From: Octopus vulgaris
Taxonomy: Eukaryota
NCBI GenBank assembly: GCA_951406725.2
Contig: OX597819.1
Span: 21,328,001-21,392,000, forward strand
Length of the DNA: 64,000 bases
Reading direction: 5' to 3'
In this document: positions 22,558 through 64,000 of the stretch, in pieces
How positions within the stretch are numbered: the stretch's first letter is position 1
Layout: each line of letters opens with the position of its first letter
Position numbers and translations under genes: made by a program
Notes under the pieces: model-generated
What the model saw: the letters and a program-made list of their open reading frames with translations, nothing else
What the model was told of the DNA's origin: nothing
Database searches by the model: none

Positions 22558-22740
22558 ACTTAGAATAACTTAGAAAGGTTTTGACCAGTATTGGCCCAGG
22601 ATGTCTAACTTAATAGCACCACCTATATATATATATATATATATATATAATAATAAATATTAGGGAATAAATCCAAATTTACAGGGAAAAAATATCAGAT
22701 TTAGGATTAAATCCAATTTTATAGTAAAATATTATATAAT

Positions 22741-22897
22741 ATTATTAGAGACAAAACCACTATTTTGAAGTCCACCTGAAGATTGTCGATCAGGACAAGA
22801 AACAATTGTAGTGGCGGTTTTTTTTACTTTTTATTAAAATTTTATGTATTGATTAAGTCTTTCCTTGTTTGTTTTGCAAAATAGTGGTTTTGTCTCT

Positions 22898-22903
<6 letters not shown>
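22741..22903 (+). mobile_element. Mini-element: 27-bp perfect inverted repeats enclosing a hammerhead
   Basis: attattagagacaaaaccactattttg (22741-22767) and caaaatagtggttttgtctctaataat (22877-22903); followed by (TA)n. Confidence 0.75.
22772..22814 (+). ncRNA. Minimal type-I hammerhead ribozyme (intact)
   Basis: CCAC-CUGAAGA-UUGUC(GAUCAG)GACAA-GAAAC-AAUU-GUA-GUGG; all core positions and three stems are consistent; stem III palindrome ACAAUUGU. Confidence 0.85.
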
Positions 22904-22953
<50 letters not shown>

Positions 22954-37277: not shown

Positions 37278-38866
37278 TAGGTGTGTCGACACCAACTTGC
37301 ATCTACCCTTGCTAATCTGTGGAGAAACTCACTGGATGCTGGCTATATTCCAAAAAACCTTCTGTCCCAGTCTGTTGTCCCAGTTTTTAAAAAGGGAAAC
37401 AAGTCCCTTGCAGTGAATTACCGTCCGATCTCACTCACCTCTCATATCATCAAGGTATTTGAGAGGGTGGTGAGATCTCGAATAACCCAATTTCTGGAAA
37501 GCAACAGACGGCTGATCTCCAACCAACGTGGGTTCCGTAATGGAAGGGACTGCCTAACGCAGCTCCTGCATCACTTTGAGGACATTTTGAGAGCTTTGGG
37601 AGAGGGCTCCAACACCGATGTCATCTACCTTGATTTCAGTAAGGCCTTCGACAGGGTCGATCACAAGATCCTATTGAAAAAACTATCCAACATTGGTGTC
37701 TCTGGAAAGTTACTGAAATGGATCAAGTGTTTCTTGACAGACAGATCTCAACATGTTGTAGTTGAAGGGGTAAAATCAAGCCCAGCCAAAGTCAGTAGTG
37801 GCGTTCCGCAAGGCACTGTGCTGGGCCCACTTCTTTTCATCATTTACATTAATGACATTAATGACATCATCAAGCACAGCAACATAAAAATCTTTGCAGA
37901 TGACTCCAAGCTACAGAAGGTCATAAATGAGGCGAGTGACCGGACATGCCTTCAGTCAGATCTACTGGCTGTTATCCAATGGGCAGAAAAAAACAATATG
38001 CTGCTGAACGAGGATAAATTTGAGCTAATCCACTTTGGAAAAGAGGATGCCCTGAAACTCCCATACTCCCTTCCTTCAGGTGAAACTCTCGCGGCGTCCA
38101 ACAATATCAGAGACCTGGGAGTAATTGTGGACAACAACATAAGCTGGGCCACTCATATAAACACCAAAGTTGACATGGCCCGCAGAATGTGTTCCTGGAT
38201 TCTCAGAACTTTCCAGTCGAGAGATATCCACACCATTATCCTTCTCTTCTCCACTTTTGCCCGACCCCACCTTGAATACTGTTGTCCACTGTGGTCTCCC
38301 CACACAATACAAGGTATCATAAAAGTTGAAGCACCTCAAAGGGCAATCACAAAAAAGATAGATGGCATGACAGGCCTCGACTATTGGGGTCGACTAGAAA
38401 AGCTAAAACTCTATTCTCTCCAACGTCGTCGTGAGCGCTACATCATCTGCATGATGTGGAAAATATTCCATCAGCATTGCCCAAATGATGTTGGCATCAC
38501 CTTTAAGGTACATCCAAGGCTTGAGCCCCGTGCCATCCGCCCAAAACAAAAATCGCACTCTCATCTCATAACAACAATACGGCACAATTATTTCACCTCA
38601 ATTGGCCCCGCTCTCTTTAACATTACACCAAAACACATTAAAACAGAAACTGACCCTATAGGGTTCAAGAAGTCTTTGGACAGATTCCTTCAAGAAATCC
38701 CGGATAAACCCCCTACACCCGGATATGTCTCTGTAAACAATAACTCTCTACTTGAGTGGGCCATAGTGCCCAAATTCTGACTTGAAAGACTTCACCAGGT
38801 GGTGCTATTAAGTTAGACATGGCCTGGGCCAATAATGGCCGAAACCTATCAAAGTATCAAAGTATA
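37278..38866 (+). mobile_element. 5'-truncated LINE including 3' UTR and (TATCAAAG)n tail
   Basis: Stop at 38780, then ggtggtgct..catggcctgggccaataatggccgaaacc tatcaaag tatcaaag; flanked by TA-rich microsatellite on both sides. Confidence 0.88.
37281..38780 (+). CDS. Reverse transcriptase domain and C-terminus of a CR1/L2-type LINE ORF2 (5'-truncated, no endonuclease)
   Basis: 499-aa open frame with [67 protein letters not shown]. Confidence 0.92.
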
Positions 38867-38957
38867 CTTATACATAGACATATATATATACCTATATATA
38901 CATACATACACATATATACATACACACACATATATACATACACATACATATATACAT

Positions 38958-38990
<33 letters not shown>

Positions 38991-38997
<7 letters not shown>

Positions 38998-39291
38998 ATA
39001 TTTCAGAATGGTCATTTTGCCAGTTTGGCCAATAAAAACACACGCACTATATATTTGGTGTTATTTTGCTTCAGTGTTATTTATTTTTTACATTAATGTT
39101 AATCTTATTTCGGCCAGAGATCTTTCGTCACACTCCTGTGACGGCATCAGTGGTCCTTTGTTTTCTTCTTTCTTACTTGTGTCTCTCCTTACTAACCGTC
39201 AGCCATTTTGTATTTCTATTGTATGTCTTCATTTGCGCATGTGTTTTTATTGGCTAAACTGGCAAAATGACCATTCCGAAATATAACAATA
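38991..39291. mobile_element. About 300-bp MITE-like element with about 52-bp terminal inverted repeats and an internal hammerhead
   Basis: tattgttatatttcagaatggtcattttgccagtttggccaataaaaacaca versus tgtgtttttattggctaaactggcaaaatgaccattccgaaatataacaata (2 mismatches); TA at both ends. Confidence 0.85.
39111..39156 (-). ncRNA. Near-intact minimal hammerhead (A9->C core variant)
   Basis: GGACCA-CUGAUGC-C-GUCAC(AGGAGU)GUGAC-GAAA-GAUC-UC-UGGCC; stem III palindrome AGAUCU. Confidence 0.6.
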
Positions 39292-39346
39292 TCTGTTTCA
39301 ACACACGACTTCACATAAAAAAATCTTGCACAACAAATATTTAAAC

Positions 39347-52020: not shown

Positions 52021-52530
52021 TAATTTCAAATTAATAATAAAAGGGTAAAATTAATCAATTTATTTACCCCCTTATTATTAATTTGAAATTGTAATTTACT
52101 TCATGATAGAACACTGTAGTTTTCTCCGGTACTGCTCGTAACATACACGTGGGTACAGGGCTGAATAAATAGTGTATTCACATTCCACTGTGTAAATTTT
52201 GGAAGTATTGGTTGGATATCTGTTGTACGATGTCGCTCGATCGTGTGCATATTTAACACTAGCACTATCAAATTTTATAATTGAAAATGCTACACTGAAG
52301 AGAGAAGGAAGTAATTAAAACACTTTAATCTCGAAACGCGTATGTGGCTAATCAGAGTCGTTGTGGATTCATTGTTTTTTTTTTACTTTGCTACGTAAAA
52401 AAGTGTGTTATTGTCGTGGAGAATCTTACAGTAGTAGAAAAGGAATTTTTAACTCCTATTTCTAAATTCGGTATGTGGTGAAGCAATTAGCTGATCCCTA
52501 ATTATAATTGTTTATAATTATAGAATATTT
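52021..52530 (+). mobile_element. Penelope-like mini-element with a 5' terminal hairpin and a hammerhead
   Basis: 52022-52090 folds back (aatttcaaattaataataa..gggtaaa / tttaccc..ttattattaatttgaaatt); hammerhead at 52289; microsatellite flanks. Confidence 0.6.
52289..52348 (+). ncRNA. Minimal type-I hammerhead ribozyme (intact)
   Basis: GCUACA-CUGAAGA-GAGA(23-nt loop)UCUC-GAAAC-GC-GUA-UGUGGC; stem III palindrome ACGCGU. Confidence 0.82.
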
Positions 52531-62453: not shown

Positions 62454-64000
62454 TGTACGTATGTATGTGTGTATGTATGCATACATGTGTGTATGTATGT
62501 ACATATTCATGTCCGCACATACGCCTGTGTATGCATGTATGTATGTATGTATGTATGTATGTATGTATGTATGTATGTATGTATGTATATATGTATGTGT
62601 GTGTATAAGCACGCACATACACTCTATAAAACATAAAGTTATAAACCTGTAGCGTTGGATGGATGTAGAGTGACCACTCATCACAACGCTATCAAATTTC
62701 AACTCCCTACGGCCGAGGCTAGAAAGTGAATTTATGACGCTTGCTCACAAGAACTATACCCTAAAATCTATTATCAGATTTTTATCTCTATATCACAGAA
62801 CTAATGTTTTACTATTGTTCGTATGTATGTATGTATGTGCGTATGTATGTATGTGCGTATGTATGTATGTATGTATGTATGTATGTATGTATGTATGTAT
62901 GTATGTATGTATGTATGTACATACGTACGCATGTGCGTATGTATGTATACGCGCCCGTATGCATGTGCCCATGTATGTGTGTGTGTACATGTACGTGCGT
63001 ATGTACGTGTGTATGCCCATACGTAGGTATGTATGTATGTTTGTATTCATGTGCTACGTATGTATGTGAGTGTCTAGGAGAATGGGCAGATGTGTCCGTG
63101 AGAGTGTGTACATGTGTATGTGTATGTGAACGTATGTCCGTGTACTGGCATGTGTCCGTCCAAGTTGTGTACATGACTGTTACTTAGCTGAAGGTTGTAT
63201 ACATATTTACATATATGTTTGTATGTATGTAATATATGTAAATATGTATACAACCTTCAGCTAAGTAACAGTCATGTACACAACTTGGACGGACACATGC
63301 CAGTACACGGACATACGTTCACATACACATACACATGTACACACTCTCACGGACACATCTGCCCATTCTCCTAGACACTCACATACATACGTAGCACATG
63401 AATACAAACATACATACATACCTACGTATGGGCATACACACGTACATACGCACGTACATGTACACACACACATACATGGGCACATGCATACGGGCGCGTA
63501 TACATACATACGCACATGCGTACGTATGTACATACATACATACATACATACATACATACATACATACATACATACATACATACATACATACATACATACA
63601 CATACATACATACGCACATACATACATACATACGAACAATAGTAAAACATTAGTTCTGTGATATAGAGATAAAAATCTGATAATAGATTTTAGGGTATAG
63701 TTCTTGTGAGCAAGCGTCATAAATTCACTTTCTAGCCTCGGCCGTAGGGAGTTGAAATTTGATAGCGTTGTGATGAGTGGTCACTCTACATCCATCCAAC
63801 GCTACAGGTTTATAACTTTATGTTTTATAGAGTGTATGTGCGTGCTTATACACACACATACATATATACATACATACATACATACATACATACATACATA
63901 CATACATACATACATACATGCATACACAGGCGTATGTGCGGACATGAATATGTACATACATACACACATGTATGCATACATACACACATACATACGTACA
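62454..64000. repeat. Large near-perfect inverted duplication, 15-nt spacer at 63217-63231, right arm runs off the window
   Basis: 63232-64000 is the reverse complement of 62454-63216, including non-repetitive blocks; visible differences are confined to the (ATGT)n tract. Confidence 0.95.

Follow-up and report, generated by a model that had tools for sequence, protein, structure and literature searches.

What kind of element is the short unit at 22650-22903, and how was it assembled? It lies between two (TA)n runs in a 64,000-nt stretch of the Octopus vulgaris genome (the window; G000:C6:21328001-21392000), and an earlier note had described it as a textbook hammerhead ribozyme bracketed by a perfect inverted repeat. 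The unit turns out to consist of two 5'-truncated ends of a young Penelope-like retrotransposon (PLE) of the Hydra clade, joined head to head and inserted in a (TA)n run. The feature is genuine and of a class already known, and the window element taken alone is an ordinary fragment.

The two target runs, read directly from the window sequence, occupy 22625-22649 and 22904-22952, confirming that the unit is flanked by TA repeats on both sides. On the minus strand, 22650-22740 is a 91-nt "tail" lying between two 3' end points, a short one (S) and a long one (L), as established by comparison with other copies. The adjacent 22741-22767 (minus strand) supplies the other 27 nt of the long-ended arm, those upstream of S, so that the L arm of this copy amounts to 27 nt plus the tail. 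The head-to-head junction falls at 22767, where the G is compatible with both arms. The short-ended arm (22767-22903, plus strand) comprises 137 nt of exon 2 of the PLE leader, or pseudo-LTR, starts 4 nt downstream of the splice acceptor described below, and closes with S at 22877-22903 (plus strand). The inverted repeat of the earlier note, with 22741-22767 as its left arm and 22877-22903 as its right arm, is indeed perfect over 27 bp and can be extended to 29 bp by two more matching nucleotides outward. In full-length copies the tail extends ∼55 nt beyond L, up to the ATG of the open reading frame (ORF).

The 43-nt hammerhead (22772-22814, plus strand) contains the core elements CUGANGA, GAAA and NUH and all three stems of a minimal type I motif: stem I CCAC/GTGG, CTGAAGA, a 5-bp stem II, GAAA, and the palindromic stem III ACAATTGT, with a predicted cut after GUA at 22810. 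The coordinates and the GUA site are as the earlier note gave them, whereas "fully canonical" does not hold, as pair 10.1-11.1 is U-A and not the usual G-C, a pair called highly conserved in PMC4209133. The 4-nt spacing was also correctly noted, although the hammerhead starts 4 nt after the left arm and not inside it. A simple hammerhead descriptor matched twice in the window, versus an average of 0.03 matches per shuffle over 100 shuffles. Folded as a monomer, the motif has another minimum (-6.6 kcal/mol; z -0.18) than the hammerhead (-5.5 kcal/mol), while in the dimer a double hammerhead through the palindrome ACAATTGT is the energy minimum (-22.2). By these folding models the window hammerhead is of the minimal, dimer-dependent type, predicted to need dimerisation via stem III. 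PLE motifs of the minimal type are reported to cleave little or not at all as monomers (Cervera and de la Pena, PMC4209133). Rfam did not match the hammerhead family on 22655-22900; across the whole window, the repeat search and the Rfam scan were dominated by microsatellites, in which the 2.8-Gb genome is rich.

The genome-wide copy search proposed in the earlier note revealed a multicopy mobile element. A search with the core returned 628 candidates, and the 40 that were scored are 97-100% identical over query bases 24-163, many of them in inverted pairs of variable spacing; an unbroken match to query bases 1-163 was not seen in any other copy of the 40. These other copies have one arm that stops at S, immediately on (TA)n, and a partner arm that runs ∼90 nt further to L. 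This S-to-L stretch is the reverse complement of 22650-22740, so the earlier note was right to suspect that the segment continues the element's 3' end in inverted form. Arms range from ∼20 bp to >1.3 kb, and the length of the inverted repeat is not fixed because the arms are truncated copies of a PLE end in inverted orientation. The idea of an independently recurring "inverted repeat plus ribozyme" design is not supported. The likeness to a second window element at 38992-39345 stands, whereas its independence does not, as both are PLE ends whose common architecture follows from one shared, published insertion pattern (PMC8557442).

Linkage to an ORF was found in L051, which has the window unit's outline at 7.35 kb and encloses a truncated reverse transcriptase (RT)/GIY-YIG frame. 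Searching the genome with this frame gave 774 candidates, and 8 of 30 ORF loci contain uninterrupted frames of 838-852 aa. In full-length copies the ATG is directly preceded by the hammerhead, S, tail and L, all of which are repeated 3.5-5.4 kb past the stop, with a canonical hammerhead in both the 5' and 3' repeats, as in pseudo-LTRs. The 840-aa single ORF P0002 reads, by motif, as an RT (GAPDS, YRDD, thumb) followed by a C-terminal GIY-YIG domain (VVYK..YIG). It has DKT instead of DKG (SDKTRN), a CxCX5C linker (CTCRDKSNC), no CCHH motif, and CxxC and CxH around a conserved E and N. Residues C691, C693, C699, C797, C800, E803, N817, C826 and H828 are conserved in at least 90% of 16 aligned proteins. 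Pfam had no match for P0001 or P0002 and PDB none for the profile; the named relatives of the P0002-type protein come from Argonauta and Octopus. An asparagine-rich insert occupies residues about 495-600 of P0002 (L085), between the RT thumb and the linker, and N-rich ORF inserts are known from Adineta PLEs (PMC3846280).

These features place the element in the Hydra clade, as judged from motifs and from likeness to the supplement sequences of PMC8557442. Published for that clade are (TA)n targets, canonical hammerheads, inverted 5'-truncated copies and a tail at one end (PMC8557442), and the insertions studied here likewise consist of a partial tandem pseudo-LTR and an inverted 5'-truncated copy with a tail at one end only. 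Hydra-1_Obim from Octopus bimaculoides (PMC8557442) shares the C-terminal GIY-YIG, DKT, the CxCX5C linker, the lack of CCHH and the CxxC and CxH motifs, and its N-terminus and RT are plainly alike by eye. It is nevertheless a separate family with another hammerhead and leader. Compared with the clade as published, the O. vulgaris tail is longer (∼90 versus 30-40 nt), KWK replaces RWK (RIKWKAF here, RMRWKAF in Hydra-1_Obim), and the asparagine-rich insert follows the thumb. The unit is also larger, 6-8 kb (6.3-8.1 kb from hammerhead to hammerhead in full-length copies) versus generally <3 kb there, because of a repetitive 3' region of 3.5-5.4 kb, in which the intron lies. Sister subfamilies (L169, L171, L188, L121, L291) have the S and L ends in common and keep the hammerhead core with other stem II sequences. 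A non-LTR retrozyme was considered and rejected, since there are no monomer arrays among 159 insertions and the sequence is 97-100% identical to ORF-bearing copies.

In order to describe how arms are paired, we used a sample of 159 insertions anchored on exact end patterns, taken as the first matches in contig order with one duplicate locus removed. Genome-wide, these patterns match 236 long ends and 897 short ends, the long-end list coming from one subfamily. Two-armed head-to-head insertions account for 81 of the 159, and all 81 combine one L end with one S end; 76 are single-arm and two are complex. Partner remnants are present in 12 of the single-arm loci and are always of the opposite type. 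Another 24 have their 5' end on (TA)n and lack a partner; the rest comprise 28 long or untraced loci and 12 left unclassified. Nine longer insertions also conform to the L+S rule. (TA)n adjoins 131/131 short ends and 110/113 long ends in the sample. Within the 81 pairs, S reaches further than L in 20, L further than S in 28, and the two are about equal (within 5 nt) in 33; junction overlaps of 1-11 nt occur in 45. The junction of one insertion (L198, G000:C5:6761500-6765000) is occupied by telomeric TTAGGG repeats, which separate its two arms.

At 9 nt above the hammerhead, many arms diverge from the genomic sequence and pass into what lies 1.1-3.6 kb upstream in full-length copies. The skipped segment starts with GTAAGT and ends with TTTTAG, the GT-AG borders of an intron. 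By splice state, 244 arms divide into 73 spliced, 34 unspliced, 19 ending at the junction and 118 ending below it. Exact patterns find 591 spliced arms genome-wide, none of which continues into the sequence between L and the ATG; all 16 ORF-linked leaders found in the same way retain the intron. Similarly, in 20 long loci, the 19 visible 3' repeats and the 14 5' repeats that reach the acceptor are all unspliced. The spliced arms carry at least five haplotypes matching different full-length copies, and splicing therefore recurred on many source copies. Four junction forms are tied to donor alleles. In the full-length copies L216-L218 the splice donor is changed from GT to GA, and a +4 GAAA junction, shifted 4 nt to the next GT, is exclusive to their haplotype (25/25 typed arms, 1 untyped). 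Contigs from four runs presumed to be RNA cover exon 2 and parts of the ORF start, and speak neither for nor against a spliced mRNA. Two successive exon-1 ends within the arms of L029/L030 (G000:C5:130727077-130730561) suggest exon-to-exon splicing across tandem units of the long 3' region. The window copy stops 4 nt short of the junction, so that its own splice state is not visible; its template was nonetheless very probably a spliced leader.

Within an insertion, the two arms match each other as copies of one RNA should. Splice form is the same in 21/21 pairs in which both arms pass the junction, the rare GTAA form included, and mismatches between arms average 0.35 bases within pairs versus 2.4 between pairs (26 pairs). 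Two chimeric insertions extend this agreement to host sequence. In L173 (G000:C3:34043500-34047000) both arms carry three spliced host exons joined to the PLE hammerhead exon; the exons map to G000:C16:50424709-50424780, 50371805-50371986 and 50338147-50338240, span 86 kb and have GT-AG borders. In L122 (G000:C2:52883501-52886537) one host exon from G000:C13:22809849 is present in both arms at the same splice acceptor. A close source PLE copy was not found within 140 kb downstream of the host exons of L173 or within 50 kb downstream of that of L122; on C16 the search gave only an 81% relative, ∼100 kb downstream. Loss, polymorphism, a greater distance or trans-splicing could each account for the missing source. 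As for the repeats of full-length insertions, a single circular template for all of them is disfavoured by one case, L218, whose 5' repeat lacks a variant common to its 3' repeat and its inverted arm.

The 5' ends of the arms fall at two preferred places. Upstream, spliced arms with few exceptions retain no more than 23 nt of exon 1: of 103, 9 stop exactly at this length and five match further. The wall lies at the A of TTCACTT, which we take to be an initiator by its likeness to the consensus. An Inr-like TCACT occurs in Adineta PLEs (PMC3846280). We infer from this wall that it may be the element's transcription start site. At least seven spliced arms pass the wall (L118, L128, L030, L391), both L118 arms by ∼300 nt, so some spliced templates begin farther upstream. 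An extra G of the cap type is clean in one arm (L278); in the other G-bearing arms, the partner arm can be the source of the G.

The other preferred place is just 3' of the hammerhead cut, predicted at 93 nt above S. Nine loci (sister subfamily, host-exon chimeras and rearranged arms) were dropped before these ends were counted. Of 203 arms at risk, 69 end 67-94 nt above S, whereas at 95-122 the figure is 9 of 134 (p about 1e-9). Only five arms have their end at 91-94 and no arm has it at 95-100, pairs are mostly concordant in class (23 both lower, 26 both upper, 6 mixed), and the 5' repeat of the full-length copy L223 starts at 94. On balance, the position of these ends slightly favours copying of the 67-94 nt arms from hammerhead-cut RNA. 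Stalling or slippage of the RT could also produce a pile-up here: its modes, at 75 and 83, lie in T/A-rich microhomology, and only the five arms at 91-94 end close to the cut itself. A second PLE family has no clear pile-up at its own cut site (63 arms). For Poseidon_Ac, hammerhead cleavage was dispensable in vitro, and RNA-seq gave no reads that end at the cut (PMC11167929).

We consider it quite probable that the window unit was made when the element's RT-endonuclease introduced nicks in both strands of the target and started two cDNAs, one at L and one at S, on the same sense RNA. The proposal is built on direct observations of family identity, ORF linkage, the L+S rule, (TA)n targeting, splice junctions in siblings and agreement between arms. 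Each nicked target strand would prime at one of the two sites, S or L, on the same sense RNA, whose leader would read 23-nt exon 1, intron, hammerhead, S, L and ATG. The two cDNAs would run toward the 5' end of the RNA (the cap, the cut site or a premature stop), be trimmed and be joined by microhomology. Support comes from Poseidon_Ac in vitro, where both strands are cut and extended and two internal RT starts flank the tail (PMC11167929). Counting against this explanation is the single short arm without a partner at 24 of the 159 insertions. Priming within the leader of a spliced mRNA would yield ORF-less, dead-end mini-palindromes of 100-400 bp, the window copy among them, while ORF-bearing copies would arise by priming in the downstream, unspliced repeat. 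That repeat may escape splicing because the 23-nt first exon is perhaps recognised only next to the cap. ORF-bearing copies would then retain the intron because they were primed in the unspliced downstream repeat.

To the broadest form of this account we give an even chance. It holds that the PLE protein copies capped, spliced, sense mRNA; that two-site priming in the leader gives only dead-end mini-palindromes (∼590 arms) while propagating copies come from the unspliced downstream repeat; that 5' ends map both the start site and hammerhead cutting in vivo; and that the acceptor traps host exons, which are scattered as palindromic retrocopies.

Alternatively, one cDNA primed at L might snap back and copy itself up to S, which would leave the PLE origin unchanged and is akin to what Arkhipova et al. 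2013 (PMC3846280) proposed, self-priming or an antisense template. Such folding back would account for near-identical arms, for junctions that are often palindromic, and for the 33 of 81 pairs with equal reach. It cannot, without a later deletion, produce an S arm that outreaches the L arm, as in 20 of the 81 pairs and in the window itself (137 versus 27 nt). S ends moreover stand alone on (TA)n at 18 loci and also close ORF-bearing arms of 6-8 kb, and we regard this route as unlikely. As to an antisense template, it would not undergo the sense-strand GT-AG splicing seen at the junctions, which argues against that proposal for these insertions.

Priming of two cDNAs on one sense RNA must also be weighed against two explanations of another kind. 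Spliced arms outnumber ORF-linked leaders by far (591 to 16), and PLE-derived non-autonomous elements have been published (10.64898/2026.07.22.740005), as would fit descent of the spliced arms from one or a few intronless, SINE- or retrozyme-like masters amplified in trans. We find this very improbable, however, given the at least five haplotypes matched to different full-length copies, the four junction forms that follow donor alleles, and the host exons spliced onto the same acceptor. The sample also contains no tandem monomers, and arms stop at one wall and do not read into flanks. The direction taken by the earlier note, a MITE-like DNA transposon with terminal inverted repeats and a hammerhead present by chance, was suggested by the perfect 27-29 bp repeat, the small size and the TA target. 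It can practically be dismissed: the repeats are neither symmetric nor of fixed length, varying from ∼20 bp to >1.3 kb with ends made unequal by the tail; the sequence belongs to an element that encodes an RT, of which it is the leader and 3' end, and has intronless siblings; and none of the 40 scored copies matched query bases 1-163 in one piece.

LINE-1 twin priming uses two primers on the same RNA and so produces an inversion whose junction has microhomology, and in processed pseudogenes spliced host exons are retrocopied. Unlike twin priming, both starts here are at fixed, element-encoded sites ∼90 nt apart, the overlapping copies form a palindrome, and a poly(A) tail is absent. Closer to the present case, Poseidon_Ac in vitro (Frangieh et al. 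2024, PMC11167929) shares the two internal RT starts flanking the tail, cutting and extension of both target strands, and AT-rich targets, and its protein is a predicted dimer. Its RT starts are inside the ORF whereas ours are in the 5' leader, and the available text of that study does not show one start per insertion end or spliced templates. Penelope of D. virilis (Schostak et al. 2008, PMC2377424; PMC4209133) likewise has an internal promoter and a start-proximal leader intron that ends at hammerhead helix I and is spliced from most transcripts. That intron is 75 bp, 46 bp below the start, in contrast to 1.1-3.6 kb here, and genomic copies there keep it, whereas hundreds of intronless leader copies are found in the present genome. 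Adineta Penelope trans-mobilisation (Arkhipova et al. 2013, PMC3846280) resembles our insertions in that mobilised host sequence lies between PLE ends, ORFs have Asn-rich inserts and junctions are head to head. There, host introns are kept and an antisense template is proposed; here, host exons are spliced (L173) and the template is sense.

Among mobile elements, PLEs are the nearest kin of telomerase RT. Described as open for them are the keeping of introns, the origin of the inverted structures and of the tail, and hammerhead cutting in vivo (PMC8557442; PMC3846280; PMC4209133). The hundreds of near-identical insertions of this young family record a template that was sense, often spliced, and identical for both arms. 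The splice data, read from genomic copies, thereby suggest that a sense, spliced RNA served as template, which bears on PLE intron retention; if this is true, a fossil record in the genome answers the intron-retention puzzle. Spliced arms also offer defined RNA substrates that make open questions of PLE replication testable, and host-exon capture is a route for duplicating host 5' exons. No report of intronless genomic PLE leader copies was found in a full-text search of openly available literature, nor were spliced host-exon capture or mapped 5' walls.

The comparison element at 38992-39345 consists of an S arm with hammerhead (38992-39241, minus strand) and an L arm with tail (39237-39345, plus strand). 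Motifs read by eye indicate the end of a second, Neptune-type PLE family, in whose upstream frames a CX2-5CxxC linker and a CCHH-type GIY-YIG are found. Its end patterns match 1932 long and 2286 short ends, and among 54 loci all nine pairs are L+S. In five of its loci (L325, L328, L345, L357, L369), 5' ends cluster 221-227 nt above S, possibly a start site.

Three further features of the window were noted. A near-perfect palindrome at 62454-64000, with at least 770 bp per arm and its centre near 63224 (402 nt at 100%, 369 nt at 99%), runs off the end of the window; its left arm has no hammerhead by the simple descriptor, and either a genuine fold-back or an error of assembly could underlie it. 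At 52289-52348, ∼190 nt upstream of a (TA)n run, there is a second hammerhead-like motif, whose stem II is long; it is probably another PLE end. Lastly, 37281-38870 contains a 499-aa RT frame of a LINE, and a reverse-strand piece at 22578-22624, resembling the 3' end of this LINE, adjoins the left (TA)n run of the unit. Both hammerhead elements of the window thus lie in TA runs that adjoin ends of the same LINE family.
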